Source: an uncultured Acidobacteriota bacterium (GTDB lineage Bacteria > Acidobacteriota > Vicinamibacteria > Vicinamibacterales > CAVVIG01). From it: a DNA stretch of 64,000 nucleotides. The first letter of the stretch is position 1. Each line of letters begins with the position of its first letter. The notes below the pieces were generated by a model, which was not told where the DNA came from, did not search any database, and saw nothing but the letters and a program-made list of their open reading frames with translations. The position numbers were made by a program, and so were the translations under genes. The DNA is taken from positions 14,674 through 78,673 of the forward strand of contig CAVWHY010000002.1 in assembly GCA_963754955.1 (NCBI GenBank), read 5' to 3'. This document shows, in pieces, positions 197-62,521 of this stretch.

Positions 197-535
<339 letters not shown>

Positions 536-536
536 A

Positions 537-608
537 GGTTCACGGTTCAGGGTTCAGGGTCAGGTTCGCCGTTTGAACCCTGAACGTTGAACCCTGAACC
601 TCTGAACC
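537..608 (+). repeat. Heptamer-periodic imperfect hairpin (unit GGTTCAG x4-5, loop GCCGTTT, complementary CTGAACC-type units)
   Basis: Read directly: ggttcac ggttcag ggttcag ggtcag gttc / gccgttt / gaac cctgaac gttgaac cctgaac ctctgaac. It fills the whole rpsJ-rplC spacer. Confidence 0.85.
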
Positions 609-1315: not shown

Positions 1316-1381
1316 GGCTCGTGGCTCGTGACTCGTGGCTCGGACGTTTCGAGCCACCAGCCACCAGCCGCCAGCCACGAG
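1316..1381 (+). repeat. Heptamer-periodic imperfect hairpin (GGCTCGT x4, loop GACGTTTC, CAGCCAC x4)
   Basis: ggctcgt ggctcgt gactcgt ggctcg / gacgtttc / gagccac cagccac cagccgc cagccac gag. C:C mismatches recur every 7 nt. It fills the rplC-rplD spacer. Confidence 0.85.
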
Positions 1382-2298: not shown

Positions 2299-3124
2299 AT
2301 GCCCATTCGCAAGTTCAATCCCACGTCGCCCGGGCGCCGGTTTCAGACCGGCCACGACTTCGACGAGATCACGACCTCGGAGCCGCACAAGCCGCTGGTC
2401 GAGACGCTCCATCAGTCGGGCGGGCGCAACAACCGCGGCAACCTCACGTCGTGGTGGCGCGGCGGCGGCCACAAGCGGATGTACCGCGTGATCGACTTCA
2501 AGCGGGACAAGCACGACATCCCGGCGAAGGTGTCGACCATCGAGTACGACCCGAACCGGTCCTCGCGCATCGCGCTCGTGACCTACGCGGACGGCGAGAA
2601 GCGCTACATCCTGCAGCCGAGCGGTCTGAAGGTGGGCGACACGATCGTGTCCGGCCAGAACGTGGACATCCTGCTCGGGCAACGCGCTGCCGCTGAAGAA
2701 CATCCCGCTCGGCACGCAGCTCCACAACGTCGAGCTGAAGCCCGGCAAGGGCGGGCAGATTGCGCGCAGCGCCGGATCGTCCGTGCAGCTGGTGGCCAAG
2801 GAAGGCCAGTACGCGTCGGTCAAGATGCCGTCGAGCGAGATTCGCAAGATCTTCAGCGAGTGCTACGCGACGATCGGCCAGGTCGGCAACATCGAGCACG
2901 AGAACGTCGCGATCGGCAAGGCCGGCCGCAGCCGGTGGATGGGCAAGCGCCCGCACGTCCGCGGCGTCGCCATGAACCCGGTCGACCATCCGCTGGGCGG
3001 CGGCGAAGGCAAGACGTCGGGCGGACGCCACCCCGTGTCGCCGTGGGGCCTGCCGACCAAGGGCTACAAGACGCGCAACCGCAAGACCACCGATCAATAC
3101 ATCGTCACGCGGAGACAGAAGTAA
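2299..3124 (+). CDS. rplB: 50S ribosomal protein L2, frame broken by one extra base near 2677-2680
   Basis: The N-terminus (ORF from 2299) and the C-terminus ..[24 protein letters not shown].. (ORF 2783-3124) are both L2. The frames join as ..VDILLG|[25 protein letters not shown]... Length 826 = 3n+1. Confidence 0.9.
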
Positions 3125-3467
3125 TGAGCCGCTCAACCAAGAAAGGTCCGTTCGTCGATACGCCGCTCCTCGAGAAGATCGAGGTGATGAACCGCGGATC
3201 CGAGCGGAAGGTCATCAAGACGTGGTCGCGCCGGTCCACGGTGATCCCCGAGATGGTGGGACACACGCTGGCCGTGCACAACGGCAAGAAGTTCATCCCC
3301 GTGTACGTGACCGAGAACATGGTCGGCCACAAGCTGGGCGAGTTCGCGCCGACGCGGCAGTTCAAGGGTCACACGACGAAGGTGGCGGAGCGGGCGGCCC
3401 AGGCCGCGGCGGCGCCTGGCGCGCCGGGCGGCGCGGCGGCGGCAAGCCGGCCGGCGCGTCGAGCTAG
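3124..3467 (+). CDS. rpsS: 30S ribosomal protein S19, 3' end uncertain (no in-frame stop as sequenced)
   Basis: [50 protein letters not shown] is S19. The ATG overlaps the rplB stop. The nearest plausible stop, TAG 3465-3467, is in another frame (length 3n+2), which implies an indel in the GC-rich tail at about 3400-3460. Confidence 0.8.
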
Positions 3468-3480
3468 GCGGAGAGCAGCG

Positions 3481-3898
3481 ATGATACAAGCGCAGGCAAC
3501 CTCTCGATACATCCGGACCTCGGCGCAGAAGGCCGGGCTCGTGCTCGATCTCATCCGCGGCAAGGACGTCAACCGCGCGCTGGCGACGCTCGAGTTCGCG
3601 CGCAAGTCGGTGGCGGAGGACATCGCGAAGCTGCTCCGGTCGGCGATTGCGAACGCGCAGCAGAAGGACGGCTTCAGCGGCGACGTGGACCGGCTGTTCG
3701 TGTCCGCGTGCTACGCGAACCAGGGGCCGTCGCAGAAGCGCGTGCGGCCGGCGCCGATGGGCCGGGCGTTTCGCGTCCTGAAGCGCACCGCGCACCTGAC
3801 CGTGCACGTCTCGGAGCGGCCGCAGAAGGCTGTGGCCGTGGCGGCGGGCGAAACGAAAAAGCGGGCGCAGAACCCCGAAGAAAGCTGCGAAGGAGTAA
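3481..3898 (+). CDS. rplV: 50S ribosomal protein L22, one extra base near the 3' end
   Basis: [39 protein letters not shown] is L22, with GGAG 9 nt upstream. TAA 3896-3898 is reached if one base is dropped, for example in the C-run 3873-3876, giving ..AQNPKKAAKE*. Length 3n+1. Confidence 0.82.
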
Positions 3899-3900
3899 CC

Positions 3901-4590
3901 GTGGGCCAGAAGGTTCATCCGTTCGGATTCCGGCTCGGCTTCAACAAGACGTGGCGGTCGCGCTGGTACTCCGACCGCGACTACGCGAAGCTGCTGCACG
4001 AGGACCTGGCGCTGCGGTCGACGCTGAAGAAGCGCTTCGCGCACGCCGGCGTCTCGAAGATCGAGACCGAGCGCGCCGCCAACAAGCTGAAGATCGACAT
4101 CTACACCTCGCGGCCCGGGATCATCATCGGCCGCAAGGGCACCGAAGTCGACAAGCTGAAGCAGGAAATCCAGAAGCGCACCAACCGCGAGGTGTTCATC
4201 AACATCCAGGAGATCCAGAAGCCGGAGCTCGATGCCCAGCTCATCTCCGAGTCGGTGGCGATGCAGCTCGAAAAGCGCGTGGCGTTCCGGCGCGCGATGC
4301 GCAAGGCGGTCGAGTCGGCGCTGCGGTTCGGCGCCCGCGGGATCAAGGTGCGCGTGTCGGGCCGGCTGAACGGCGCGGAAATCGCGCGGTCCGAGTGGTA
4401 CCTGCACGGCCAGCTGCCGCTGCAGACGCTGCGCGCGGACATCGACTACGGGTTCGCTGAAGCCAACACGACCTACGGCCAGATCGGCATCAAGGTGTGG
4501 CTGTACAAGGGCGAGCGGCTCGTGCCGCAACGCGGGCGTGAAGAAGAGTACCGAGAGCGGGCCCCACGCCGACCGGCGGCGCGGGCCTAG
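3901..4590 (+). CDS. rpsC: 30S ribosomal protein S3
   Basis: GTG start; [39 protein letters not shown] is S3 (KH domain). 230 codons, intact. Confidence 0.95.
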
Positions 4591-4605
4591 GAGAATTGAG
4601 TATTT

Positions 4606-4703
4606 AGTCATCTGGTCATCTGGTCATCTAGTCATCGTTTGCCAATTGAGCCATTTCACAATTGAGCAACGATGACCAGATGACCAAATGACCAAATGAC
4701 CAG
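4606..4703 (+). repeat. Octamer-built hairpin element, copy 1 (4x GGTCATCT, apical CAATTG stem-loop, 4x AGATGACC)
   Basis: agtcatct ggtcatct ggtcatct agtcatcg .. caattg agccatttca caattg .. cgatgacc agatgacc aaatgacc aaatgacc ag. It ends 15 nt before the rplP ATG. Confidence 0.9.
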
Positions 4704-4718
4704 ATTCGAGATCGCATT

Positions 4719-5334: not shown

Positions 5335-5590
5335 ATGGCGACGAAATCCGAGAAAACCGGCGTGGTCGTGAGCAACAAGATGACGAAGAGCATCGTCGTC
5401 GCCGTGGAGTGGCAGGTGCGCCACGGGCTCTACGGGAAAACCGAGCGGCGGACGTCGAAGTTCATGGTCCACGACGAGGAAAATACCGCCAAAGTCGGTG
5501 ACATCGTCGAGATCGTCGAAACGCAGGCCGCTCAGCCGCAGCAAACGCTGGGCGCTCAAGCGCGTGGTGCGGCAGGCGGCGGAGGTCTAA
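5335..5590 (+). CDS. rpsQ: 30S ribosomal protein S17, one extra base about 5525
   Basis: [48 protein letters not shown], then after the shift [21 protein letters not shown]. Length 256 = 3n+1. Confidence 0.88.
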
Positions 5591-5592
5591 CC

Positions 5593-5961
5593 ATGATTCA
5601 GATGCGATCGATCCTCGACGTCGCCGACAACTCGGGCGCCCGCAAGATCGCGGTGATCAACCCGATCGGCGGGTCGACGGGCCGCTACGCGCGCCTCGGC
5701 GACATCGTCACCGCGTCGGTCAAGGAAGCGACGCCCGAGGGCAACGTCAAGAAGGGCGCCGTCGTGAAGGCGGTCATCGTGCGCACCGTCAAGGAGCAGC
5801 GCCGGCGCGACGGCAGCTACATCCGCTTCGATCGCAACGCGGCCGTGCTGATCAACGATCAGAACGAGCCCATCGGCACCCGCGTGTTCGGTCCCGTCGC
5901 CCGCGAACTGCGCGAGCGCCGGTTCATGAAGATCATTTCGCTCGCGCCGGAGGTCCTGTAG
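5593..5961 (+). CDS. rplN: 50S ribosomal protein L14
   Basis: [41 protein letters not shown] is L14. 123 codons. Confidence 0.96.
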
Positions 5962-6298: not shown

Positions 6299-6838
6299 GC
6301 CGCCTGAAGGAGCGCTATCAGCAGGACGTCATCCCGGCCGCTGAAGAAGGAGTTCGGGTACACCAACGTCATGGCCGTCCCGAAGATCCAGAAAGTCGTC
6401 GTCAACATGGGCCTCGGCGAGGCGACGTCGAACGTGAAGATCATCGACACGGGCGCCGACGAGCTCGGACGAATCACGGGGCAGAAGCCGGTGACGCGCC
6501 GGTCGAAGAAGTCGATCGCGCAGTTCAAGGTCCGCAAGGGCCAGCCGGTCGGGACGATGGTCACGCTGCGCGGCGCGCGCATGTGGGAGTTCCTCGACCG
6601 CCTGATGAACATCGCGCTGCCGCGCGTGCGCGACTTCAAGGGCGTCTCGCCCAAGGGCTTCGACGGACGCGGCAATTACACGCTCGGCCTGCGCGACCAG
6701 CTGCTGTTCCCGGAGATCGACTACATGAAGGTCGACAAGGCGCGCGGCATGAACGTCTCGGTCGTCACCACGGCCAAGACGGACGAAGAGGCGAGGAAGC
6801 TGCTGCAGTTCATGGGCATGCCGTTCAGGCAGAACTGA
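6295..6838 (+). CDS. rplE: 50S ribosomal protein L5, one extra base about 6338
   Basis: [15 protein letters not shown], then after the shift [28 protein letters not shown].. (ORF 6371-6838). The ATG overlaps the rplX stop. Length 544 = 3n+1. Confidence 0.9.
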
Positions 6839-6843
6839 CGCGC

Positions 6844-6885
6844 AGGTCACAGGGCAAAAGGCACACGGCAGAGGGCAAAGGGTTA
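6844..6885 (+). repeat. Single-arm heptamer array (AGGGCAA-type x6) running into the rpsN start codon
   Basis: aggtcac agggcaa aaggcac acggcag agggcaa agggtta|tg. Confidence 0.8.
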
Positions 6886-7070
6886 TGGCAACGACGGCCA
6901 AGATCGCGAAAGAACAGAAGAAGCCGAAGTATAAGGTCCGGCTGCGCAACCGCTGCCACCTGTGCGGCCGTCCGCGCGCGTACATGCGGAAGTTCGCGCT
7001 GTGCCGCCTGTGCTTCCGCAAGTTGGCGCTCGAGGGCGACGTCACGGGCGTTACGAAGAGTAGCTGGTGA
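6885..7070 (+). CDS. rpsN: 30S ribosomal protein S14, zinc-binding type Z
   Basis: 61 aa, ..[28 protein letters not shown].. Confidence 0.96.
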
Positions 7071-7074
7071 ATAG

Positions 7075-7170
7075 AGTCATCTGATCATCTGGTCATCTCG
7101 TCTTCGTCGATCAATTGAGCACTTGCAATTGAGCAACGATGACCAGACGACCAGATGACCAAACGACCAG
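7075..7170 (+). repeat. Octamer-built hairpin element, copy 2
   Basis: agtcatct gatcatct ggtcatct cgtcttcg .. caattg agcacttg caattg .. cgatgacc agacgacc agatgacc aaacgacc ag. It ends 19 nt before the rpsH ATG. Confidence 0.9.
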
Positions 7171-7189
7171 ATGAAGTGAGATAGCAGAT

Positions 7190-7600
7190 ATGACTGATCC
7201 GATCGCAGACATGCTCACGCGGATCCGGAATGCCGTGAGCGCGAAGCACACACGCGTCGACATGCCGGCCTCGCGCATCAAGGCCGACATCGCCCGCATC
7301 CTGCAGGACGAGGGCTACATCCAGGGCTTCAAGGTCCTGGACGCGCCGCCCGGCCAGACGACGGCCGTCAGCAAGGTGCTGCGGGTGTTCCTGAAGTACG
7401 GGCCGCACGGCGAGCGGCTCATCACCGGCGTCGAGCGGATCAGCCGCCCCGGCCGCCGTGTCTATTTCGGCCACGACGACGTGCCGGAGGTGCTGGCCGG
7501 GCTCGGCACCAGCATCCTGACCACGTCGCGCGGCGTGATGACCGGGCGGGAAGCCGTCAAGGTCGGCGTCGGCGGCGAAGTGCTCTGTAATATCTGGTAG
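7190..7600 (+). CDS. rpsH: 30S ribosomal protein S8
   Basis: [43 protein letters not shown] is S8. Confidence 0.97.
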
Positions 7601-7634
7601 GACGCGCGACCACCACGAGCGACGGGAAACGAAC

Positions 7635-8175
7635 ATGTCACGTATAGGCAAAAAACCGATCACGATTCCGAAGGGCGTCACCGTCAAGGTCGCCGACGGC
7701 GCGGTCGAAGTGCAGGGCCCGAAGGGCAAGATGCGGCAGCCGTTTCCGGCCGGCATCAACTTCGAGCTCGCGGACGGCGCGCTGCACGGCGAAGCGGTCG
7801 ACCGCCGACCCGGAGCTCGCCAAGTACCACGGCCTGGCGCGCAGTCTGATCGCCAACGCGGTGCAGGGCGTCACCGAAGGCTTCAAGAAGGAGCTCGACA
7901 TCGTCGGCGTCGGCTACCGCGCGGAGCTAAAGGGCAAGCAGGTGATTTTCGCCCTGGGCTACTCGCACGCCGTCGTCTTCGACATTCCGACGGGTATCGA
8001 CGTCGCGATCGACAAGCAGACGCACATCACGGTGACGGGCGTCGATCGGCAGCTGGTCGGCCAGGTGGCGGCGAACATCCGGCGCCTGCGGGAGCCGGAT
8101 CCCTACAAGCAGAAGGGCGTTCGGTACACCGGCGAAGTGCTGAAGAAGAAGGCCGGCAAGACCGGGGCGAAATAG
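7635..8175 (+). CDS. rplF: 50S ribosomal protein L6, one extra base about 7785
   Basis: [19 protein letters not shown].., then ORF 7861-8175 ..[23 protein letters not shown]... Length 541 = 3n+1. Confidence 0.9.
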
Positions 8176-8177
8176 AC

Positions 8178-8552
8178 ATGAAGATTCATACGAAAGCCGA
8201 TCGCCGCGAGCGGATTCACCTCCGCCAGCGCAAGCGGATCACGGGAACGACGGAGCGGCCGCGCCTGAGCGTGTTCCGCAGCGTGTCGCACATCTACGCG
8301 CAGGTCATCGACGACCTGAGCGGCAAGACGCTGGCGTCGGCGTCGTCCACCGATCCGAAGCTGAAGGGCGCGTTCGAGAAGGACGTGCGCGGCGGCAACA
8401 TCAAGGGCGCCGAGGCGATCGGCAAAGCCATCGCCGAGCGATCGATCGACAAGGGCATCAAGCGCGTCGTCTTCGACCGCGGCGGGAACCTGTATCACGG
8501 GCGGATTCGCGCTGTCGCGGATGCCGCACGCAAAGCCGGTCTGGAGTTCTAA
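8178..8552 (+). CDS. rplR: 50S ribosomal protein L18
   Basis: [57 protein letters not shown] is L18. Confidence 0.95.
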
Positions 8553-9071
8553 ATGTTCAGTCGTGAACGCATCGATCCGTCGCAGCTCGACATCAAGGAC
8601 ACCGTCGTCTCGATCAACCGCGTGACCAAGGTTGTCAAGGGCGGCAAGAACCTGAGCTTCAGCGCCCTGGTCGTCGTCGGCGACGGACACGGCGTCGTCG
8701 GGTTCGGCATCGGCAAGGCGAAGGAAGTGCCCTCCGCCATCAAGAAGGGCATCGAGGCGGCGAAGAAGAACCTGATTCGCGTGCCGCTCAAGGGCACCAC
8801 CATCCCGCACCGCATCGTCGGCAAGTTCGGCGCGGGCGCGGTGCTGCTGAAGCCGGCGCCGGACGGCACGGGCATCATCGCGGGCGGCGCGGTCCGCGCC
8901 GTCGTCGAGGCCTGCGGGGTGACGAACATCCTGACGAAGTCGCTGGGATCGGCCAACCCCCACAACGTGGTGCGCGCGACGTTCACGGGGCTCAAATCGC
9001 TGCAGGATCCGCTGAGCATCGCGAGGCTCCGCGGCAAGGACCTCGATCAGCTGGTTCCGGCGAACGCATAG
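8553..9071 (+). CDS. rpsE: 30S ribosomal protein S5
   Basis: ORF 8553-9071, ..[39 protein letters not shown].. Confidence 0.97.
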
Positions 9072-9088
9072 GATTCGGAGATACAGAA

Positions 9089-9289
9089 GTGGCCAACGAA
9101 CGGACGGATAGCAAAGGCGGCATCGTCAAGGTGACGCTGGTGAGGAGCCCGACCGGCTTCGACCGCAAGCAGTCGACGACGGTCACGAGCCTGGGGCTGC
9201 GGCGCATTCGCCACACGGTCGAGTTGAAGGACACGCCGGCCGTGCGGGGCATGATTCACAAGGTCCGTCACCTGGTGACGGTGGAATAG
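9089..9289 (+). CDS. rpmD: 50S ribosomal protein L30
   Basis: GTG start; ..[38 protein letters not shown]. Confidence 0.93.
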
Positions 9290-9302
9290 TGATGGTGAAT
9301 GT

Positions 9303-9402
9303 GGTCATCTCATCATCTGGTCATCTCGTCATCGTCTCGATCAATTGAGACATTGGACAGTTGATCGACGATGACCAGATGACGAGATGACCACATGACC
9401 AG
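9303..9402 (+). repeat. Octamer-built hairpin element, copy 3
   Basis: ggtcatct catcatct ggtcatct cgtcatcg .. caattg agacattgga cagttg .. cgatgacc agatgacg agatgacc acatgacc ag. It ends 16 nt before the rplO ATG. Confidence 0.9.
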
Positions 9403-9418
9403 ATTCGAGAGAGCATTT

Positions 9419-9865
9419 ATGGATTTATCGAATCTCAAACCGCCGAAGGGCGCCAAGCACGTCAAGAAGCGCATCGGGCGCGGCCAGGGGTCGGGCAACG
9501 GCAAGACCGCCGGCCGCGGCCACAAGGGCGCGAAATCGAGGTCGGGTTACAAGTTCAAGCGCGGCTTCGAAGGCGGCCAGATGCCGCTGCACCGGCGCGT
9601 GCCGAAGCGCGGGTTTCACAATCCGACCCGCGTCGAGTACGACGTCGTCAACGTCGACACGCTCGCGGAGCGGTTCGAGGCCGGCACGGTCGTGACGCCG
9701 GAGCTGCTCCGCGAACACCGGCTGCTGCCGGGCGGCGGCCGCCCCCTGAAGGTGCTGGCCCGCGGCGACGTCAGCAAGGCGCTGACGATCCGCGCCCACA
9801 AGTTCAGCGGCAAGGCGGAGGAGAAGGTGAAGGCGGCGGGCGGAACGACGGAGCTGATCGCGTAG
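9419..9865 (+). CDS. rplO: 50S ribosomal protein L15
   Basis: MDLSNLKPPKGAKHVKKRIGRGQGSGNGKTAGRGHKG is L15. The track ORF starts at 9395 inside the repeat, so the ATG at 9419 is preferred. Confidence 0.92.
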   Translation: MDLSNLKPPKGAKHVKKRIGRGQGSGNGKTAGRGHKGAKSRSGYKFKRGFEGGQMPLHRRVPKRGFHNPTRVEYDVVNVDTLAERFEAGTVVTPELLREHRLLPGGGRPLKVLARGDVSKALTIRAHKFSGKAEEKVKAAGGTTELIA

Positions 9866-9896
9866 GTGGATTGATCGTCAAATCCATGGATCGCAT

Positions 9897-11288
9897 ATGG
9901 CCTTAGACAGCAGCCTCAAGAACATCTTCGCGGTGTCGGAGCTGCGCAACCGGGTGCTCTTCACCCTGGCGCTGCTCGGCGTGTTCCGCATCGGCGGGCG
10001 CATCGTCACGCCCGGCGTGGACATCCGCGCGCTCGAGGAATTCGCCCAGCAGCTCGGCAAGAACAGCATGTTCGGGCTGTACGACATGTTCACGGGCGGG
10101 AACCTCGCGAAGGTCACGATTTTCGCGCTGGGCATCATGCCCTACATCAGCTCGTCGATCATTCTCCAGCTGCTGACGGTCGTGTGGCCGTACCTGGAGA
10201 AGTTGTCGAAGGAAGGCGAGCTGGGCCGCCGCAAGATCACGCAGTACACGCGTTACGGGACGATCGTGCTGTGCGTCGTGCAGTCGCTCGGGATCGCGTT
10301 CTTCCTCGAGCGCAACACGACGCCGAGCGGCTTTCACCTGGTCACGAACGCGGGCTGGGGATTCCGGCTGTTGACGATCCTGACGCTGTCGACGGGGACG
10401 GCGTTCGTCATGTGGCTGGGCGAGCAGATTACCGAGCGCGGCATCGGCAACGGCATGTCGCTCATCATCTTCGCGGGCATCGTCGTCAACTTCCCGCGGG
10501 CGGTGATGACGACGTTCGAGCAGATGCGGACCGGCCAGATCGGGCTGATCCGGATCCTGTTCCTGATGGTGCTCATGGCGGTGGTGGTCGCGGCCATCAT
10601 CTTCGTCGAGCGCGGACACCGGCGAGTCACCGTGCAGTACGCGAAGCGCGTTGTGGGCCGCCGGATGTACGGCGGGTCGAGCACGCACATCCCGCTCAAG
10701 GTCAACACGGGCGGCGTCATCCCGGTCATCTTCGCGTCGTCGATCCTGGCGTTTCCGGCCACGATCGCGAGCGCGTTCAAGGGGCCGTGGGTCGACACTG
10801 TCGTTCAGCAGCTGAACGTGGGGATGCCGCTGCACAACCTGCTGTACGTGGCCGGCATCATCTTCTTCGCCTACTTCTACACGGCGATCATCTTCAACCC
10901 GGACGACGTCGCCGAGAACATGCGCAAGTACGGCGGGTTCATCCCCGGCATCCGGCCGGGCAAGCGGACCGCGGAGTACATCGACACGATCCTGGCGCGG
11001 ATCACGCTGGCGGGCGCGCTCTACCTGGCGGTCATCGCGATTCTGCCGCAGTGGCTGATGAGCGGCTTCCGGGTGGCGCCGATTCCCGTCATCGGGGACT
11101 GGCTCGATTCCGTGCTGCCGCGGTTCATCACCGAAGGCATGAACATCACGTTCTTCTTCGGCGGCACGTCGCTGCTCATCGTGGTCGGCGTGGCGATGGA
11201 CACGGTGCAGCAGGTGGAATCGCAGCTCATCATGCGGCACTACGACGGCTTCATGAAGAAGACGCGGCTTCGTGGCCGGCGCGGGTAG
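9897..11288 (+). CDS. secY: Preprotein translocase subunit SecY
   Basis: 463 aa, multi-TM, ..IFALGIMPYISSSIILQLL..GRRKI.QYTRY.. Confidence 0.97.
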   Translation: MALDSSLKNIFAVSELRNRVLFTLALLGVFRIGGRIVTPGVDIRALEEFAQQLGKNSMFGLYDMFTGGNLAKVTIFALGIMPYISSSIILQLLTVVWPYLEKLSKEGELGRRKITQYTRYGTIVLCVVQSLGIAFFLERNTTPSGFHLVTNAGWGFRLLTILTLSTGTAFVMWLGEQITERGIGNGMSLIIFAGIVVNFPRAVMTTFEQMRTGQIGLIRILFLMVLMAVVVAAIIFVERGHRRVTVQYAKRVVGRRMYGGSSTHIPLKVNTGGVIPVIFASSILAFPATIASAFKGPWVDTVVQQLNVGMPLHNLLYVAGIIFFAYFYTAIIFNPDDVAENMRKYGGFIPGIRPGKRTAEYIDTILARITLAGALYLAVIAILPQWLMSGFRVAPIPVIGDWLDSVLPRFITEGMNITFFFGGTSLLIVVGVAMDTVQQVESQLIMRHYDGFMKKTRLRGRRG

Positions 11289-11291
11289 CGT

Positions 11292-11972
11292 GTGGCAGTC
11301 AACGTCATCATGCTCGGCCCCCCGGGGGCGGGAAAGGGCACGCAGGCCGAACGTGTGGCGCGCAGCCGCGGCATTCCCAGGATTTCGACCGGCGACATCC
11401 TGCGCGACGCGGTCCATCACCACACGGCCATGGGGGAGAGCGTGCAGGCGGTCATGGACCGCGGCGAGCTGGTCAGCGACGACGTGATGATCGGCATCGT
11501 CACCGAGCGGCTGGGGCGCCCGGACGTGGCGCCGGGGTTCGTGCTCGACGGCTTTCCGCGCACCGTGGCGCAGGCCGCGGCGCTCGATCGGCTGATGAAC
11601 GGACGCGATCCGCTCATCGTGCTGGATATCGTCGTGCCGGAGTCGGAGCTGGCCCGTCGTCTCGGCATGCGGCTGATTTGCGAGGACTGCGGCACCAACG
11701 CGGACGGACGGGAAGTCGTGCCGGGGCGCTGCGGCAAGTGCAGTGGACGGCTGACGCAGCGTGCCGACGACAGCGATGGCGTGGTGCTCGAGCGGTTCAA
11801 GATTTACCAGCGGGCGACAAAGCCGCTGGTCGAGTTCTACCGCGATCGATCGACGTTCCGGTCGATCAACGGCGCACAGCCGGCGGACCTGGTGACGGCC
11901 GAACTGGCCGCGGCAATCGAAGCCGTCGGCAACGGGCGCCTGAATGCCGCCAGTGGAGGGAACACGCGGTGA
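11292..11972 (+). CDS. adk: Adenylate kinase (4-Cys zinc lid)
   Basis: GTG start; MLGPPGAGKGTQAE..ISTGDILR..GFVLDGFPRT; lid CEDCG..CGKCSG. Confidence 0.95.
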   Translation: MAVNVIMLGPPGAGKGTQAERVARSRGIPRISTGDILRDAVHHHTAMGESVQAVMDRGELVSDDVMIGIVTERLGRPDVAPGFVLDGFPRTVAQAAALDRLMNGRDPLIVLDIVVPESELARRLGMRLICEDCGTNADGREVVPGRCGKCSGRLTQRADDSDGVVLERFKIYQRATKPLVEFYRDRSTFRSINGAQPADLVTAELAAAIEAVGNGRLNAASGGNTR

Positions 11973-12742
11973 TCGTCTGCCGGTCGGCCGCCGAGCTCGA
12001 ACGGATGCGGGAGGCCGGGCGTCTGGTCGGCGAAGTGCTGACCGAGCTGACCGCCGCGGTGGCGCCGGGAGTGAGCACCGCCGAGCTGGACGAGATGGCG
12101 GAGCGGCGCATCCGCCAGGCGGGGGCGACGCCGGCGTTCAAGGGGTATCACGGGTATCCGGCGACCATTTGCGCGTCGATCAACGACGAGGTGATTCACG
12201 GGATCCCGTCGGGCCGCCGGGTGCTGGCCGAGGGCGACATCATCTCGATCGACGTCGGCGCCGCGCTCGACGGGTACTACGGCGACAGCGCGGTGACGCT
12301 GCCCGTGGGCCACGTCTCGGAGCAGGCCGCGACGCTGCTGCGGGTGACGGACGAGTCGCTGTACAAGGCGATCGAGCAGGCACGGCCGGGACGCCGCGTA
12401 TCCGACATCGGCCACGCCGTACAGCGGCACGTCGAGGCGTTCGGGTTTTCGGTCGTGCGCGAGTTCGTCGGGCACGGCATCGGCGTGCGGATGCACGAGG
12501 AGCCGCAGGTGCCCAATTACGGCGAGCCGGGTCACGGGCCGCGGCTGGCCGAGGGCATGGTGCTCGCGATCGAGCCCATGGTGAACGCCGGGAAGCCGGC
12601 GGTGAAGGTGCTGGCGGACGGGTGGACGGCGGTGACGCGCGATACGAGCCTGTCCGCGCACTTCGAGCACACGGTCGCGGTGACGTCGGGAGAGCCGTGG
12701 ATACTGACGGCACGGGAAGTCCCGGTCAGCGCGCGCCGATAG
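11969..12742 (+). CDS. map: Methionine aminopeptidase type I
   Basis: The GTG overlaps the adk stop. ..KGYHGYPATICASINDEVIHGIP..DIISIDVGA..GHGIG..HEEPQVPNY..EPM..HFEHTV. Confidence 0.94.
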   Translation: MIVCRSAAELERMREAGRLVGEVLTELTAAVAPGVSTAELDEMAERRIRQAGATPAFKGYHGYPATICASINDEVIHGIPSGRRVLAEGDIISIDVGAALDGYYGDSAVTLPVGHVSEQAATLLRVTDESLYKAIEQARPGRRVSDIGHAVQRHVEAFGFSVVREFVGHGIGVRMHEEPQVPNYGEPGHGPRLAEGMVLAIEPMVNAGKPAVKVLADGWTAVTRDTSLSAHFEHTVAVTSGEPWILTAREVPVSARR

Positions 12743-12930
12743 CGGGCGTGGTCGTCGAGCAGCTGCCGAGCGCGCTGTACCGCGTGAGGCTGGACGAGGG
12801 AACGCAGGTGCTGGCGCACGTCGCTGATCGGATCGACCGCAATTTCGTGCGCGTGATCGTCGGCGACCGGGTGCAGGTGGAATTGTCGCCGGTGGACGGC
12901 GGACGCGGGCGTATCGTGAGCCGGCTGTAG
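12697..12930 (+). CDS. infA: Translation initiation factor IF-1 (start codon uncertain)
   Basis: ..[61 protein letters not shown] is the IF-1 S1/OB fold. There is no ATG. Candidate GTGs are 12697 (overlapping map) and 12748 (which would truncate the N-terminus). Confidence 0.75.
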
Positions 12931-12973
12931 TTGTCGTGCAGGCCGTCGGGCCTGCCTGAAGATTCGAGGAAGC

Positions 12974-13087
12974 ATGAAGGTTCGAGCGTCAGTCAAACGG
13001 ATTTGCGACAAGTGCAAGATCGTCCGCCGCGCGGGCGTGGTGCGGGTGATCTGCCCGAACCAGAAACACAAGCAGCGGCAGGGCTAG
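12974..13087 (+). CDS. rpmJ: 50S ribosomal protein L36
   Basis: [37 protein letters not shown]. Read by hand; too short for the ORF track. Confidence 0.95.
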
Positions 13088-13088
13088 C

Positions 13089-13130
13089 GGGACAAGGGCA
13101 GAGCGCAAAGGGCAAAGGGCAAAGAGCATA
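13089..13130 (+). repeat. Single-arm heptamer array (GGGCAAA-type x6) running into the rpsM start codon
   Basis: gggacaa gggcaga gcgcaaa gggcaaa gggcaaa gagcata|tg. Confidence 0.8.
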
Positions 13131-13504
13131 TGGCACGAATTGCTGGTGTAGACCTTCCCCGGACGAAGCGGGTCGAGATCGGTCTCACGTACATCTTCGG
13201 GATCGGGCGGATGCGCTCGAACGGCATCCTCAAGGACGCGGGGGTCAGCCCCGATGTGCGCGTGAAGGATCTGTCGGAAGACGATGTCCGCAAGATCAGC
13301 CGGGTGATCGAAGAGCAGGGCGGCGTCGAAGGCGACCTCCGCAAGGAAGTGTCGATGAACATCAAGCGGCTGATGGAAATCGGCTGCTACCGCGGGGCGC
13401 GCCACCGGCGCAGCCTGCCCGTCCGGGGGCAGCGGACACGCACGAACGCGCGGACCCGGAAAGGGCCGCGCAAGGGCGCCATCGCGAAGAAGAAGGTCAT
13501 TTAG
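13130..13504 (+). CDS. rpsM: 30S ribosomal protein S13
   Basis: [48 protein letters not shown]. Confidence 0.97.
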
Positions 13505-13520
13505 GAAGGTCATCTGATTT

Positions 13521-13976
13521 ATGGCGAAGAGTGATCCGGTCGACGCCTCAGCCGTCCCCGAAAAAGGCGAGAAGAAAGAAGGGGCAGGCCGGCGCAAGAA
13601 GACGTTCAAGAAGCGCGGGGAAAAGCGGATCGTGCACCACGGGCTGGCGCACATCCAGGCCTCGTTCAACAACACCGTGGTGACGATCACCGACACCGAG
13701 GGCAATGTCGTCGCCTGGTCGAGTGCCGGCGGCATCGGCTTCAAGGGGTCGAGGAAGGGCACCCCGTTCGCGGCGACGCAGGCCGCCCTGAACGCCGGGA
13801 ACGCGGCGAAGGCCGTCGGCATGCGGTCGCTCGACGTGCGCGTGAAGGGACCGGGGTCCGGCCGGGAGTCGGCCGTCCGCGCGCTGCAGACCGTGGGCCT
13901 CGAGGTGAAGTCGATCCGGGACGTCACGCCGATTCCGCACAACGGCTGCCGTCCGCCGAAGCGTAGGAGAGTGTAA
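13521..13976 (+). CDS. rpsK: 30S ribosomal protein S11
   Basis: ..[56 protein letters not shown]. Confidence 0.97.
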
Positions 13977-14605
13977 TGGCGCGTTATATCGGACCCGTCT
14001 GCCGTCTGTGCCGCCGCGAGGCGATGAAGCTGTTCCTGAAGGGCGAACGCTGCTACACGGAGAAGTGCGCGATCGAGAAGCGCAACTTCCCGCCGGGACA
14101 GCACGGCAAGACGCGCAAGGCCAAGCTGGCCGGCTACGGCCTGCAGCTGCGCGAGAAGCAGAAGGTCAAGCGCATCTACGGCGTGCTCGAGGACCAGTTC
14201 CGCCGGTACTTCGAGTCGGCCGAGCGCACGCGCGGAATCACCGGCGAAACGCTGCTGCAGCTGCTGGAGCGCCGCCTCGACAACGTGGTCTACCGCCTTG
14301 GGCTGGCGACCTCGCGGGCCCAGGCGCGCCAGCTCGTGCGCCACGGGCACTTCCAGGTGAACGGGAAGAAGGTCGACATCCCGTCGTACTCGGTCAAGGC
14401 CGGCGACGTGATCACCGTGATCGTACGCAGCCAGAAGAATCCGACGATCGAGCACGCGATCGAGGAAGTGAAGGGACGCGGGATCCCCGAGTGGCTGTCC
14501 TTCGATCCGAACGCCATCGCGGGCCGGATCGTCTCGATGCCCACGCGCGAGCAGATCAACCTGCCGGTGCAGGAGCAGCTCATCGTCGAGTTGTACTCGA
14601 AGTAG
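13976..14605 (+). CDS. rpsD: 30S ribosomal protein S4
   Basis: [46 protein letters not shown]. Confidence 0.97.
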
Positions 14606-14795
14606 TCCGTCGCGGCCCTGAAAGGGCCGCGCTACGCACGTAGGGCGGGCCTGTCAGGCCCGCCTCGTCACCCGTCGGCCCGCAGCCTTATACAGACCTG
14701 CGGCGGGAGGCCGGCGGTTACTTGCAGGTCTGGAGGCCCGTCTGCGGGCCCGTTGGCGAATCCGGGGAAGAACCCCGGATTAGAGAGGACACGAC
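14606..14795 (+). promoter_or_regulatory. 190-nt structured spacer / rpoA leader with several GC-rich hairpins
   Basis: Hairpins: gcggccc-tgaaa-gggccgc (14612-14630), ggcgggcc-tgtca-ggcccgcc (14644-14664), cagacctgc/gcaggtctg pairing, and aatccgggg-aagaa-ccccggatt (14759-14781) directly 5' of the purine-rich RBS (agagagg). Confidence 0.45.
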
Positions 14796-15776
14796 ATGCT
14801 CTGGAAGGGTTTTCAACGACCGAAGCGGCTGGAGTTCGAGCGCGAGACGCTCACCGATCGGTTCGGACGCTTTTACGCGCAGCCGTTCGAGCGGGGATTC
14901 GGCACGACGATCGGCAATGCGGTACGGCGGGTTCTGTTGTCGTCGATTGAAGGCGCGGCCATCACGGCCGTCAAGATTGACGGGGTGCTCCACGAGTTCT
15001 CGCCCATTCCGGGCGTGGTGGAAGACGCGACGGACATCATCCTGAACCTCAAGCAGATTCCGCTGAAGCTGCACGTCGATCACGCCAAGACACTGGTGAT
15101 CAAGGTGGACAAGGCCGGCGAGGTGCGCGGCCGCGACATCCAGGCGGACGGCGACGTCGAGATTCTCGAACCGGACGCGCATATCGCGACCGTGTCCGAA
15201 GGCGGCAAGCTCCACATGGAGATGCGCATGAAGCGCGGCCGCGGCTACGTCTCGGCCGACAAGAACTTCGACGAAGACCTCGGCATCGGCTGGATCCCGG
15301 TGGACTCGGTCCACTCGCCGGTCAAGAAGGTCAACTACCTGGTCGAGGCGGCGCGCCTTGGACAGACGACCGACTACGACAAGCTCACGATCGACGTCTG
15401 GACGAACGGGTCAATCAACGCGCGCGACGCGGTGTCGCTCGCCGCGAAGCTGATCCGCGATCACCTGAACATCTTCATCAACCTCGAGGAAGGCTCGGGC
15501 GATCAGGCGGAGGCGCTGGCCGACCAGCCGCGCTCCGGCGTCAGCAACGAGAACCTCGACAAGAGCGTCGAGGAACTCGAGCTCTCCGTCCGTTCCTACA
15601 ACTGCCTCAAGAACGCGAACATCAGGACCATTCGCGAACTGGTGCAGAAGACTGAAGCCGAAATGCTCAAGACGAAGAACTTCGGCCGGAAGAGCCTGAA
15701 CGAGATCAAGGAGATCCTGCACACCATGGGTCTCAGCCTCGGGATGCGCGTGGATATGAGCGGAGCGCAGGACTAG
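14796..15776 (+). CDS. rpoA: DNA-directed RNA polymerase subunit alpha
   Basis: 326 aa, ..[27 protein letters not shown]..; C-terminal domain ..[22 protein letters not shown]. Confidence 0.97.
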
Positions 15777-15843
15777 CAAAGGGCATAGGGCAGAGGGCAG
15801 AAGGCAGAGGGAAATTTGCCCTTTGCCTTTTGCCCTTTGCCCT
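15776..15843 (+). repeat. Heptamer-periodic hairpin (GGGCAGA x4, loop AAAT, TTGCCCT x4)
   Basis: gcaaa gggcata gggcaga gggcaga aggcaga ggg / aaat / ttgccct ttgcctt ttgccct ttgccct. It fills the rpoA-rplQ spacer. Confidence 0.88.
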
Positions 15844-15856
15844 ACGTAATCACACC

Positions 15857-16441
15857 ATGAGACACCGAGTAGCACACCGCAAGCTGGGACGCGTCACCGA
15901 GCACCGGATTTCGATGCTTCGCAACCAGGCGACGGCGCTCCTGCGTCACGAACATCTGACGACCACCGTGCCGCGCGCCAAGGAACTGCGCCCGTTCGTC
16001 GAGCGCCTCATCACCGTCGCCAAGCGCGGCGTGGCCGGCGGGGCGGCGAACGCAAAGGAACTGAACGCGCGGCGGCTCGTGATGGTCGATCTGCAGGACC
16101 GCGAAGTCGTGACGAAGCTGTTCGACACGCTCGCGCCGCGGTTCGCCGACCGTCCCGGCGGCTATACGCGCCTGCTCCGACTGGGCTTCCGCAAGGGAGA
16201 CAGCGCCGAGGTCGCGCAGGTCGAACTGCTTGGCAGCGAGTACGACCCGAAGGCGAAGGCGGCAGGCGACGACAAAGCCGAGCCCGAGAAACCGAAGTCC
16301 AAGGGTGTCGGCGGGCGCCTGCGCGCGGCCGCGGATCGCATGCGCGGCAAGAAAGACGACGACGGCGGCAAGGCCGCGTCGAAGCCCGCCAAGGGTGTCA
16401 GCCGCAAGACGACCACGCCGCGAAAAGCCGGCGGCTCCTAG
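15857..16441 (+). CDS. rplQ: 50S ribosomal protein L17 (long basic C-terminal tail)
   Basis: MRHRVAHRKLGRVTEHRISMLRNQATALL.HE.L.TT..RAKELR..VE.LIT is L17. The ATG at 15857 lies inside track ORF 15830-16441. Confidence 0.93.
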   Translation: MRHRVAHRKLGRVTEHRISMLRNQATALLRHEHLTTTVPRAKELRPFVERLITVAKRGVAGGAANAKELNARRLVMVDLQDREVVTKLFDTLAPRFADRPGGYTRLLRLGFRKGDSAEVAQVELLGSEYDPKAKAAGDDKAEPEKPKSKGVGGRLRAAADRMRGKKDDDGGKAASKPAKGVSRKTTTPRKAGGS

Positions 16442-24882: not shown

Positions 24883-25362
24883 TCAGCGCCGTGAACGGGC
24901 CGGCCGGCCGCGGCCCGCCGCCAGCTGGGGAGGCGCCGCAAACGCCTCCCGCATCACGTCGAGTCCCGACTGCAGCCGCCGGCGGGCCGGCTCGTCGAGC
25001 GGCGACAGGACGGCCGCAATGTGCTGCTCGGCGCAGCGCGCCACGCGGTCGAGCGCGGCGCGTCCGCCGGCCGTCACCTCGAGCATCACGACGCGGCGGT
25101 CGGGCCCCGGCGTGACACGCCGGATCCACCCCCTGGCGACCAGCGTCGTGACGGAACTGGACATGCTGGGGAGGCTGACACCGCGGAACGCCGCGAGCTC
25201 GCTGAGCGTGCGCGGCTGCTCGCTGAGCATGTGAAGCAGCGGGAAATGCGCCGGCGCCGGCAGTTCGCCGGCCGCGCGCAGTTCGGCGGCGACCGTCCGC
25301 ATCACCAGCGGCATCACTTCGAGCAGCGTCCGCGCCGCCTCGCGGGCTTTCAACTTGGTCAT
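24883..25362 (-). CDS. MarR family transcriptional regulator
   Basis: 159 aa, winged HTH ..FPLLHMLSEQPRTLSELAAFRGVSLPSMSSSVTTLVARGWIRR..PDRRVV.LEVT. Confidence 0.9.
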   Translation of the reverse strand: MTKLKAREAARTLLEVMPLVMRTVAAELRAAGELPAPAHFPLLHMLSEQPRTLSELAAFRGVSLPSMSSSVTTLVARGWIRRVTPGPDRRVVMLEVTAGGRAALDRVARCAEQHIAAVLSPLDEPARRRLQSGLDVMREAFAAPPQLAAGRGRPARSRR

Positions 25363-25364
25363 TT

Positions 25365-25399
25365 CAGTGAGCGGTGATCAGTGATCAGTGATCGGTACG
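25365..25399 (+). repeat. Single-arm heptamer array (CAGTGAT-type x5) in the marR/pdaD divergent spacer
   Basis: cagtgag cggtgat cagtgat cagtgat cggtacg. Same unit as the hairpin inside nadB. Confidence 0.8.
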
Positions 25400-41578: not shown

Positions 41579-41620
41579 CGACTGCCGACTGCTGACTGTC
41601 GACTGCCGACTGGTTACTGT
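41579..41620 (+). repeat. Single-arm heptamer array (CGACTGC-type x6)
   Basis: cgactgc cgactgc tgactgt cgactgc cgactgg ttactgt. It ends 17 nt before GTG 41638. Confidence 0.8.
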
Positions 41621-53406: not shown

Positions 53407-55046
53407 GTGCATCTCTCCCCGGATTTCATCGTCATCGGCAGCGGCATCGCCGGGCTGCGGGCGGCGATTGCGCTCGCGCCCGTCGGCCGCGTCCTGATTC
53501 TGACCAAGGCCGAACCGACCGAGAGCAATACCGGCTACGCGCAGGGCGGCATCGCCGTCGCGCTCGGCGACGACGACAGCCCCGCGCTCCACGCGGCGGA
53601 CACGGTGAAGGCCGGCGACGCGCTCTGCGACGAAGAGGCCGTGCGGGTGCTGGTCGAGCAGGGACCGCCGCTACGTCACGGAGCTCGTCGAGTGGGGCAC
53701 GCGCTTCGACCGCGACGCCGAGCGGGCGCCTGTCGCGAGGACGGGAAGCCGCCCACAGCGTCCGGCGCGTGCTGCACGCAGGCGACACGACGGGACGGGA
53801 GATCGCGCCGCGTCCTGTGGCGTCGTGTCAGCGCCCTGCCGACGGTCGAAACAGCGAACCACGCGCTGGTGACCGGAGCTGCTCGTCGAGGACGGGCGCG
53901 TGGCCGGCGTCAGGTTCTTCGATCAGCTCGGGTTTCCGCGGGACGCGCGGGCGCGCGCCACGCTGCTGGCGACCGGCGGGGCCGGACACGTCTTCAAGGA
54001 AACCACGAATCCGCCCGTGGCGACCGGCGACGGCGTGGCGCTCGCGTTCCACGCCGGGGCCCGCGTCGCCGATCTCGAGTTCGTCCAGTTTCATCCCACC
54101 GCGCTGAATGTCCGCGGCGCTCCGCGGTTCCTGATTTCAGAAGCGCTGCGCGGCGACGGCGCCCGGCTGCTCAACGGCCGGGGCGACGCGTTCATGGGCG
54201 GCTATCATCCCGACGGCGATCTCGCGCCGCGCGACGTCGTCGCCCGGAGCATCGTTCGCGAGATGGAGCGGACCGGCGGGCCTGTGTTCCTCTCGCTGTC
54301 GCATCTCGATCCCGACTACGTCGTCCATCGCTTCCCGACGATTGCCGACATGTGCCGCCAGATCAATCTCGACCTGGCGACGCGATCCGATTCCCGTCGG
54401 ACCCGCGGCGCACTACATCATGGGAGGCGTCGAAACGGACCACTGGGGTCGGACCTCGATTCCGGGCCTGTTCGCCGCCGGCGAGGTGGCCTGCACGGGC
54501 GTTCACGGCGCCAATCGCCTGGCGAGCAACTCGCTGCTCGAAGGACTCGTGTTCGGCGCGCGCGCAGCGACGGCGATGCAGCAGGCTGACGGTGGCCAGT
54601 GGTCAGTGGCCGGTGATCAGTGGGTGCCGGCGCCACCGATCACTGATCACCGATCACCGATCACCGATGACGGATCACCGATCGCTGCCAACCGGCGTTC
54701 GTCGAGCGACCACCGTTCGCTGACGACCAGCGAAGTCCGCGACCTGATGTGGAAGTCGGTCGGCCTGTTCCGGACGGGCGAGGGTCTGCGCGATGCCGGC
54801 GCGAAACTCGAAGCCGCGTACCGCGCACATCGTCGCGCGCTCGACGACGCGCGCGCTGACGATGCGGATGCCTGGAAGCAATTCAACCTCGTGACCGTGG
54901 CGCGACTGATCGCGCGCGCCGCGCTGCGTCGGCAGGAGAGCCGCGGCGCCCACTACCGGCAGGATTTTCCGGAGAGGGACGATGTACACTGGAAAATCCA
55001 CCTGGTAGATCACATCGACGCATATGGCGAAAAACGACAAGACTGA
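53407..55046 (+). pseudogene. nadB: L-aspartate oxidase, about five +1 shifts, plus an in-frame repeat insertion
   Basis: FIVIGSGIAGLRAA..YAQGGIA.. / ..LLATGGAG.VF..TTNP..ATGDGVALA..AGA...DLEFVQFHPT.. / ..[60 protein letters not shown]. Confidence 0.85.
54590..54687 (+). repeat. Heptamer-periodic hairpin (CAGTGRY x5, loop CCGGCG, TCACCGA x7) inside the nadB coding sequence
   Basis: cggtggc cagtggt cagtggc cggtgat cagtggg tg / ccggcg / ccaccga tcactga tcaccga tcaccga tcaccga tgacgga tcaccga tcgctg. Translated as ..[32 protein letters not shown].. Confidence 0.85.
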
Positions 55047-62288: not shown

Positions 62289-62521
62289 GCTATGGTTCGT
62301 TCAGCAGAGCCGATTGGGGCAAGTAACCACAACGAATAGGGCATCAGATTGCCCTTGCCCCAATACATAGGCCTTGCTACACTGGCGACCGCTTGGCGGC
62401 TCGGGGCCGCCTTCCGACTTTCGGAAGGCGAAGTAGCCGCAGAATCGGTCGCGTTGTCATTCTGTCACCCAGCCAGATTTCCGCACATTGAGGCATCCGT
62501 GTCGATGCCGTGGTGTCCACC

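Follow-up and report, generated by a model that had tools for sequence, protein, structure and literature searches.

The spacers of a ribosomal protein operon in an uncultured Acidobacteriota bacterium (Vicinamibacterales) carry tandem arrays of 7-nt units, some of them running into start codons and others mirrored so as to form long hairpins, and these arrays most likely grow in place by slippage rather than act as a G-quadruplex (G4) switch. The DNA analyzed is a stretch of 64,000 nucleotides (GenBank assembly GCA_963754955.1, contig CAVWHY010000002.1, positions 14,674 to 78,673), hereafter called the window, in which the S10-spc-alpha operon occupies 1-16.4 kb. Few gene arrays of bacteria are as conserved and as tightly packed as this cluster. 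We regard it as probable that the arrays are heptamer simple sequence repeats (SSRs) which were grown by slippage, are tolerated in the spacers between stop and start codons, and represent a genus-level flavour of a hypermutable repeat class.

Arrays at the rpsN, rpsM and rpoA-rplQ junctions

An earlier note on the window had described single G-rich arms, built from a family of GGGCARA units, that abut the start codons of rpsN and rpsM, and the sequence is as it described (Table 1). The rpsN leader consists of the units AGGTCAC AGGGCAA AAGGCAC ACGGCAG AGGGCAA AGGGTT, behind the rplE stop codon TGA at 6836-6838, and the rpsM leader consists of GGGACAA GGGCAGA GCGCAAA GGGCAAA GGGCAAA GAGCAT, behind the rpmJ stop codon TAG at 13085-13087. 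The only Shine-Dalgarno (SD)-like strings before the two genes sit inside array units, with no separate canonical ribosome-binding site (RBS), and in both leaders these AAGGG/GAGGG strings repeat at a 7-nt phase. In comparison with shuffled sequences, the rpsN arm folds less (z = +1.0) and the rpsM arm is unstructured (z = +0.5); local folds gave no pairing of the single arms, whether with a distant TTTGCCC arm or with coding sequence further downstream. Start-proximal single arms at other loci are built from purine-rich units, e.g. GGAAGAC, AGAGTCG, GCTAGAA and GCTAAGA.

The unit family is common to three junctions, as had been claimed, the third being rpoA-rplQ. The full hairpin reported at this junction is present, but there are 5 units in one arm and 4 in the other instead of 4 in each. 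The final base of the rpoA stop codon TAG (15774-15776) is the first base of the 5' arm. In the predicted stem, which is near-perfect, 15783-15811 pairs with 15819-15847 (-53.1 kcal/mol, z = -9.2 compared with shuffles), and a variant unit AAGGCAG is paired with a variant TTGCCTT lying opposite. The rplQ ATG at 15857 follows a 9-nt unpaired tail that contains no SD-like sequence. The site downstream of an S41 peptidase gene that had been taken for a degenerate copy of the 3' arm does form a hairpin, but no tandem array was found there: each side has at most two GGGCA/TGCCC units, with a 16-nt insert between them, and its membership in the family is doubtful.

Arrays were located with an inverted-repeat search and with Tandem Repeats Finder (TRF), and gene names were derived from translations and from Pfam labels on contigs orthologous to the window. 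The GGGCARA family is real, but it was drawn too narrowly, being one of many unit types in the window and across the Acidobacteriota. TRF detected 18 arrays with periods of 6 to 9 in the window, compared with 0-1 in 20 shuffled windows, and these comprised at least six unit types (GGTTCAG, GGCTCGT, GTCATCTG, GATCACY and CGACTGC in addition to GGGCARA). The plain count of GGGCARA was barely above chance (23 versus 15.0 +/- 3.8, with 3 of 100 shuffles reaching 23); the excess over chance lies in the tandem arrangement and not in the count. In the S10-spc-alpha operon, eight junctions are occupied, and most junctions wider than about 40 nt carry an array. Twelve of the 13 period-7/8 repeat loci in the window are located in spacers or untranslated regions (UTRs), and the remaining one (54592-54683) is an in-frame part of a coding linker. 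A search of the whole window against Rfam 15 at gathering score returned no match, either to the repeat elements or elsewhere.

Assembly artefact was ruled out as the source of the arrays, as the same arrays are found in independent JGI and ENA assemblies. The window itself probably derives from an error-prone long-read assembly. There are apparent frameshifts in rplB, rpsQ, rplF and nadB (2299-4590, 5335-5961, 7635-8552 and about 54400), and stop-less in-frame runs extend through rpsS-rplV-rpsC; the orthologues of the frameshifted genes are intact in an Illumina contig (L100; loci other than the window are given L numbers), and several ENA long-read contigs are similarly fragmented. Because of these apparent frameshifts, single-base details of the repeat units in the window are not to be over-read.

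Turnover among relatives and the origin of the arrays

The genomes nearest to the window are metagenome-assembled genomes of Vicinamibacterales. The close relatives selected for comparison were contigs encoding exactly the S13 or S14 protein of the window, with operons 92-96% identical to that of the window, and three further contigs were approximately 84-85% identical. It was rejected that the relatives with identical S13 or S14 are strains of one species, because an operon identity of 92-96% corresponds to a genus-level cluster. Between relatives with identical ribosomal proteins, the repeat elements are gained, lost and re-made. The 92-96% relatives keep GGGCWRA units, but the number of units varies from 2 to 8, and the rpoA-rplQ hairpin is missing from some of them. 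Their rpsM leaders contain 5-8 units, which differ on the 5' side (GGGCTAA, GGGCCAA) and are conserved next to the ATG (GGCAAAGGGCAAAGGGYAT|ATG). The earlier note had regarded the last unit as the sole SD-like purine source, and it is these ATG-proximal units that the relatives conserve. The rpsN leader in the same group ranges from 2 units (TAAcAGGGCTGAGGGCAT|ATG, in L108) to 6, with the last unit conserved, and over all relatives with an identical S14 protein it ranges from 0 to 6 units; L105 and L107 (84-85% identity) have no rpsN array. The note had also proposed that a lack of conservation in related genomes, together with no effect of deletion on translation, would speak against its reading, and as to conservation the outcome is divided: the arrays are conserved within the 92-96% cluster and replaced or absent beyond it.

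Turnover at the mirrored junctions includes complete absence of the hairpin as well as hairpins with other units. The rpoA-rplQ junction is a spacer of 6-7 nt in L100 and L106. It carries the GGGCARA hairpin, with a 5' arm of 5-8 units and a 3' arm of 4, in L102, L104 and the window, and hairpins with other units in L081 (GGGCTGA / TCAGCCC) and L101 as well as in L105 and L107 (GGCTGGR / CCAGCCT). The S14-S8 (rpsN-rpsH) junction is a 27-nt spacer holding only the seed TGACCAGAT in L100, L104 and L106, a hairpin of 3+3 units in L108, hairpins of 4+4 units with differing loops in L101-L103 and the window, and, in L105 and L107, a hairpin built from GAGTTGG / CCAACTC. The rpsC-rplP spacer is 12-19 nt long in L100 and L104 and has a single arm in L109, and the rpmD-rplO spacer is 5-6 nt long in L104 and L106. 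At the S10-L3 junction, a recognisable hairpin was found in nine of ten close relatives (L100-L108, except L105); seven of these hairpins are built of repeats, the units are different in each, and the 5' units often contain TAG.

In the proposed origin, which is well supported, the arrays would lengthen and shorten in place by whole-unit slippage, starting from a seed heptamer that the gene boundary already contained. A single arm would start from an SD-like heptamer beside the ATG (AGGGCAT|ATG) and a 5' arm from a heptamer containing or abutting the upstream stop codon, and a mirrored array on the other side would convert the insert into a hairpin of 25-35 bp. The minimal rpsN leader consists of two SD-like heptamers next to the ATG. 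The rpmJ gene ends in cAGGGCTAg, in which AGGGCTA, the last 7 bases before the final G of the stop codon, is the 5'-most unit type of the rpsM leader. The 5' arms at S10-L3 read TAG AGGCTAG AGGCTAG or TAG AGGTTAG..., multiplying the heptamer with the stop codon, and the single arm of L109, TGACCAGA TGACCCGA TGACCCGA, opens with the stop codon of the S3 gene. A stop triplet was present in 54 of 125 sense-strand units, compared with 38.1 +/- 3.9 after shuffling (maximum 50 in 500 shuffles).

The two arms of a hairpin change their unit number independently and by whole units. In some hairpins, such as that of the rplC-rplD spacer, each arm is internally homogeneous and is mismatched to the other arm at one position per unit, which is the pattern that slippage within arms predicts. 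The in-frame mirrored array in the linker of a NadB-like protein fits a mutational product filtered by tolerance. The three octamer hairpins of the rpsC-rplP, rpsN-rpsH and rpmD-rplO spacers are homologous, with GTCATCTG / GATGACCA units around a CAATTG centre, and their shared loop and tail, together with the all-or-none presence of the L30-L15 palindrome, suggest some ectopic copying; some whole palindromes, such as the octamer element at its three sites, were apparently copied between junctions.

Several points weigh against slippage in tolerant spacers as the full explanation. The occurrence of one unit at three junctions in one genome does not follow from slippage by itself, and neither do the loop and tail that the octamer hairpins have in common; both need either ectopic copying or a trans-acting preference. 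The first rise of a mirrored arm is assumed to occur by fold-back template switching, an established candidate mechanism for quasi-palindromes. The functional steps considered below, namely the preservation of coupling and a benefit from SD multiplication, are all steps that we infer. Furthermore, the persistence of the S10-L3 hairpin in nine of ten relatives despite differing units could mean that the structure as such is selected and not merely tolerated. In a test for selection at the RNA level, the sense strand phylum-wide folded more stably than the antisense strand in 82 versus 48 spacers (p = 8e-6), although composition skew confounds this comparison, and contained 435 versus 309 G.U pairs, a difference likewise confounded by strand composition; the close cluster gave 23 versus 23 spacers.

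Two further observations were made on spacers of the window and its close relatives. In the rpsM-rpsK spacer (13496-13520), 13 nt that take in the stop codon are duplicated in tandem (GAAGGTCATTTAG GAAGGTCATCTGA), which illustrates boundary duplication on a small scale. The duplication was found in the window, L081, L085, L087, L088 and L103, and the other close relatives lack it and have spacers of 3-4 nt or overlapping stop and start codons (TAATG). In L102, the S10-L3 and L3-L4 spacers (approximately 3527-3706 and 4361-4503) have in common a long non-heptamer insert (...gcgcctgcggccatgccgag...ggcatcag...gttcgcggcgggggtggggccccgccgccagtg...). Cores of the type ggggtggggcccc, resembling this insert, were found in spacers of L002, and the insert may be a different, dispersed palindromic element.

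Spacer geometry, distribution and rival explanations

The geometry of 113 structured spacers (median 101 nt) was compared with that of 156 short spacers. The helix spanning a structured spacer begins a median of 3 nt after the stop codon (interquartile range 1-5) and ends a median of 13 nt before the start codon, and the summed tails are 17 nt, versus 14.5 nt for the short spacers. Folding energies of the hairpins in the window are -40 to -62 kcal/mol, and those of relatives reach about -89 kcal/mol. In the six operon-spacer hairpins of the window, the last 9-20 nt stay single-stranded in the minimum-free-energy structure; this stretch includes the RBS, of the GAGA/GGAG type, and the ATG.

Such geometry is consistent with mirrored arrays that fold out of the mRNA path, which would leave an effective stop-to-start distance of about 17 nt, like that of an ordinary short spacer, keep the RBS free and preserve translational coupling. 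The stems may also act as exonuclease barriers or RNase III sites. Since an SD-like sequence is missing from rplQ both in the 6-nt spacer allele and behind the hairpin, translation of this gene plausibly depends on coupling to rpoA, and the folded-out stem would preserve this coupling. The single arms would keep the initiation region unstructured and repeat the SD-like AAGGG/GAGGG every 7 nt, which may be tolerated or mildly helpful.

Among the array periods, 7 is the dominant one: 106 period-7 arrays were found in 459 kb from 25 Acidobacteriota loci, and 17 in 902 kb from 56 loci belonging to other phyla. Arrays most often had four copies, and the same mode was found for units without G tracts. 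Expanded (80-250 nt), strongly structured spacers with period 7 occupy most junctions in the window, L001-L003, L006 and seven Terriglobales loci, and short plain spacers occur in L004, L005, L027, L012, the Bryobacterales and others; the trait is patchy across the Acidobacteriota. The units at one junction differ between genera. For the rpmJ-rpsM spacer, the window has the GGGCAAA single arm, L001 a GGTAGGTCA-type hairpin, L002 a single arm of AGTCGAC x6, and L006 a GCTTCCA / GCTGGCA hairpin, and L004, L027 and L012 are array-free, with 13 nt in total (a 3-nt spacer from stop to ATG). A metagenome scan for GGGCARAGGGCARAGGGCA returned at least 120 loci with exact GGGCARA x2.7 arrays (L110-L229), on contigs with a GC content of 37-72%. 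Among the matches listed, many arrays begin right after a stop codon, and at least about nine have a mirrored TYTGCCC arm. The GGGCARA unit thus recurs widely in unrelated organisms.

The rival that we take most seriously, although it is considered rather improbable, is that the hairpins are selected intercistronic elements, serving as RNase III sites and/or as barriers to 3'-exonucleases, which segment the S10-spc-alpha transcript into stable pieces and tune stoichiometry, much as in selective RNA processing and stabilisation (SRPS) or with REP elements, and that the repeat composition is merely the fastest mutational route to a long stem. The stems of 25-35 bp have the length of RNase III substrates, and they combine -40 to -62 kcal/mol with the lack of a U tract. 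At S10-L3 and S14-S8 the sequence is replaced and the structure persists, and folding favours the sense strand, both in the phylum-wide bias and G.U excess described above, which strand composition confounds, and in the GGGCARA hairpin, which owing to G.U pairs is about 10 kcal/mol more stable as sense than as antisense. Precedents are the RNase III-processed hairpin with a heptamer SSR in a 5'-UTR of Haemophilus influenzae (PMC12721329) and the SRPS stem-loops (PMC4423207). However, every junction is hairpin-free in some close relatives, L104 and L106 having spacers of 5-27 nt at four junctions; the close cluster shows no sense bias, the octamer hairpins fold better as antisense, and one hairpin lies inside a coding region. 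A role in processing or stability is plausible and does not exclude the slippage reading. Still more tentatively, the arrays might provide the Acidobacteriota with a self-renewing mRNA punctuation, in which slippage builds stop-flush hairpins and SD-multiplying leaders and selection keeps the hairpins at certain junctions as their sequences turn over. Slippage would possibly be promoted by transcription and RNase III, as in the hmw locus of H. influenzae, and the hairpins would bound the segments in which the transcript is processed or stabilised and would permit shunt-like re-initiation across them, for example at the SD-less rplQ. If this were true, the repeat units would be the evolvable raw material of a structural code and not junk.

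The suggestion of the earlier note that the G-rich single arms form RNA G4 structures or bind a periodic RNA-binding protein, and so regulate the translation of rpsN and rpsM, has become quite unlikely. It is true that in the close cluster the number of GGG tracts stays at exactly four in most rpsM leaders (G3N4G3N11G3N4G3), that GGGCARA arrays occur in at least 120 metagenome contigs, many of them unrelated, that G4 formation in vitro and a preference for four units are known for the G-rich heptamers of Xanthomonas and Nostoc (PMC4692102), and that S1, Csp and CsrA have been proposed to bind the TAACTGA arrays of other bacteria (PMC4679880). But the rpsN leader has only three GGG tracts in the window and 0-5 in relatives, and the rpsM leader and the 5' arm of the hairpin, which do have four, include one loop of 11 nt (the central one in the rpsM leader), longer than the 1-7 nt required between four or more tracts of at least 3 G. 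G4 prediction, which the note had proposed as a check, was carried out with ViennaRNA, G4 energies included, on the leaders as well as on the 5' arm of the hairpin, and no G4 appeared in any minimum-free-energy structure. Orthologous arrays elsewhere lack G tracts (AGTCGAC, GGAAGAC, GCTAGAA), the modal copy number of four extends to such units, and, as we infer, a G4 covering the SD of an essential gene with high expression would have an inhibitory effect. From these predictions, the G4 reading appears to fail as a general explanation and to be weak locally.

That the hairpins are miniature mobile palindromes of the MITE, REP or REPIN type, inserted by a transposase and decaying later, is also unlikely. 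This reading draws on the octamer hairpins, which share their units, a CAATTG-containing centre and a tail GATTCGAGAKMGC up to the ATG, and whose presence is correlated across the three junctions among relatives; at L30-L15, the palindrome plus tail is present or absent as a whole, the alternative being TAGacaactATG. It does not account for units and loops that differ between close relatives at the same site, for arms that change length independently, or for graded alleles of 0, 2, 3 and 4 units, of which the short ones already hold the seeds; furthermore, no target-site duplications were seen, and the three related octamer copies all lie in the operon, with no copies in the other 47 kb of the window. 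As judged from the sequences, the graded allele series would argue against mobile elements in general and less so against mobility of the octamer element. We consider it very unlikely that the hairpins are terminators or attenuators within the operon: the stems are strong and GC-rich, but no hairpin is followed by a U tract, the hairpins lie between essential co-transcribed genes, and a scan of the window for terminator and promoter consensus sequences gave no excess over shuffles, with 13 terminator sites versus 12.7 expected and the apex of TTTGCC units as the sole match in a hairpin.

With slippage in place as the preferred reading, the relatives provide a natural allele series of 0, 2, 4 and 6 units, with and without a mirrored arm. 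This series bears on how much spacer structure is tolerable without breaking coupling, on the de novo birth of long RNA stems, and on why bacterial slippage favours a period of 7 nt. The results also caution against reading G-rich heptamer arrays as G4 switches, because the four-unit preference holds for units that are unable to form G4.

Other features of the window and known repeat systems

Table 1. Arrays and hairpins located in the window
Feature	Position	Strand	Context	Folding energy or program
GGTTCAG x4 / TGAACC(C) x5 hairpin	534-608	+	rpsJ-rplC spacer	-44.9 kcal/mol
GGCTCGT x4 / AGCCACC x4 hairpin	1316-1381	+	rplC-rplD spacer; one mismatch per unit	-40.5 kcal/mol
Octamer hairpin, copy 1 of 3, GTCATCTG x4 / GATGACCA x4, CAATTG centre	4602-4705	+	rpsC-rplP	-56.3 kcal/mol
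Single-arm array, rpsN leader, 6 heptamer units	6844-6884	+	adjoins rpsN ATG at 6885	TRF
Octamer hairpin, copy 2 of 3	7076-7174	+	rpsN-rpsH spacer	-42.2 kcal/mol
Octamer hairpin, copy 3 of 3	9297-9406	+	rpmD-rplO spacer	-62.1 kcal/mol
Single-arm array, rpsM leader, 6 units	13089-13129	+	adjoins rpsM ATG at 13130	TRF
rpoA-rplQ hairpin, 5' arm, 5.1 copies of GGGCARA units	15776-15811	+	rpoA-rplQ	TRF
rpoA-rplQ hairpin, 3' arm, 4.1 copies of TTTGCCC	15815-15843	+	rpoA-rplQ	TRF
Single-arm array, GATCACT-type x4	25364-25393	-	3 nt before MarR-family ATG (25362; gene 24883-25362, minus)	
Single-arm array, CGACTGC x5	41579-41612	+	~25 nt before GTG (41638) of VKOR-thioredoxin gene	TRF
Mirrored arrays, GTGGCCA-type / GATCACC-type	54592-54683	+	in frame, NadB-like flavoprotein linker (open reading frame 54342-55046)	
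Bipartite hairpin	62313-62362	+	78 nt downstream of S41 peptidase gene	-23.7 kcal/mol, z = -4.7

Single-arm heptamer arrays are found outside the ribosomal genes too, in the leaders of the MarR-family and VKOR-thioredoxin genes. The array of the MarR-family gene ends near the start codon, with no separate canonical RBS, and the CGACTGC array before the VKOR-thioredoxin gene is prolonged by a degenerate unit to about 41620. In the NadB-like protein, the FAD_binding_2 domain ends at residue 65 and Succ_DH_flav_C begins at residue 131; the mirrored arrays encode residues 84-114, within the linker, as a 7-residue peptide repeat. This case indicates that such repeats can invade tolerant coding segments.

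The rpsD-rpoA spacer (14672-14765) contains a conserved, non-repetitive RNA element just upstream of rpoA. The element occurs in the window and in L002-L004, L006, L081, L082 and L100-L109, and no Vicinamibacterales relative with this spacer lacks it. It is predicted to form an H-type pseudoknot in which CCGUCGGCC and GGCCGGCGG make up P1, and the hairpin loop CAGACCUGC pairs with GCAGGUCUG downstream. In 10 sequences, 97.8% of cells were paired and 7 pairs were changed on both sides, which none of 500 shuffles reached, and controls with slid partners gave 30-45% pairing. The element had no Rfam match and is a candidate rpoA leader or autoregulatory site.

Excess of heptamer SSRs has been attributed to slippage in other bacteria (Mrazek 2007, as relayed in PMC4679880). 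The best-described counterparts are GGGAATC of Xanthomonas and GGGGAYT of Nostoc (Rehm et al. 2015, PMC4692102), which are tandem 7-nt repeats as well, mostly intergenic between co-directional open reading frames, located within 50 bp of a stop or start codon, transcribed, variable in unit number between strains, and with a modal copy number of four, a preference that was taken as evidence for G4 in Xanthomonas. In those genomes, 70-75 convergent pairs per genome could form stem-loops, comparable to the paired inverted arrays described here. In contrast, each of those genomes has one dominant unit, whereas many units occur per genome here and turn over at approximately the genus level; G4 formation was shown biophysically for the Xanthomonas and Nostoc repeats, and most units here are not G4-competent; and the present hairpins sit flush with stop codons within ribosomal protein operons.

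The TAACTGA repeats of marine Beggiatoaceae (MacGregor 2015, PMC4679880) resemble the present single arms in that the arrays end a few nucleotides from start codons, often as the only RBS-like context, and occur at internal junctions of ribosomal protein operons (L3, S4, S1); a translational role has only been proposed for them. TAACTGA is a single unit found across phyla, with only one inverted pair reported, while the units here (GGGCWRA, GATCACY, CGACTGC and others) are not TAACTGA but lineage-specific and purine-rich or SD-like, and the mirrored hairpin form is commoner. The heptamers among the LSSR and the cyanobacterial STRR sequences (Mrazek 2007 and Mazel 1990, as relayed in PMC4679880 and PMC4692102) share the 7-nt excess, sporadic distribution, intergenic bias and proposed origin by slippage, and the arrays here display the characteristics of that class: tandem arrays beyond chance, unit-number polymorphism and a non-coding bias. 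As relayed in these two papers, the accounts of LSSR and STRR do not include the stop-flush hairpin geometry and the boundary-seeded origin seen here.

A transcribed heptamer SSR that forms one arm of a long RNA hairpin is also known from the hmw locus of H. influenzae, (ATCTTTC)n, in which copy number changes expression and for which it was shown experimentally that RNase III processes the hairpin and that this processing has a role in copy-number change (PMC12721329). The hmw repeat differs in belonging to a single phase-variable virulence locus and in having a non-repeat right arm; the present arrays are associated with housekeeping operon genes and have repeats in both arms. REP, BIME, REPIN and SRPS stem-loops are likewise palindromes between the genes of operons and are able to stabilise upstream mRNA, but REPs are dispersed, near-identical, 20-40 bp long, non-tandem and linked to RAYT transposases (PMC2817692, PMC8266576, PMC4423207), and the hairpins here are tandem-built, site-specific and variable in unit number. 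No prior description of such arrays in Acidobacteriota was found in the literature searched. Compared with the known systems, the new features are the many units per genome, the predominance of the mirrored form, the stop-flush placement and the evidence for a boundary-seeded origin.

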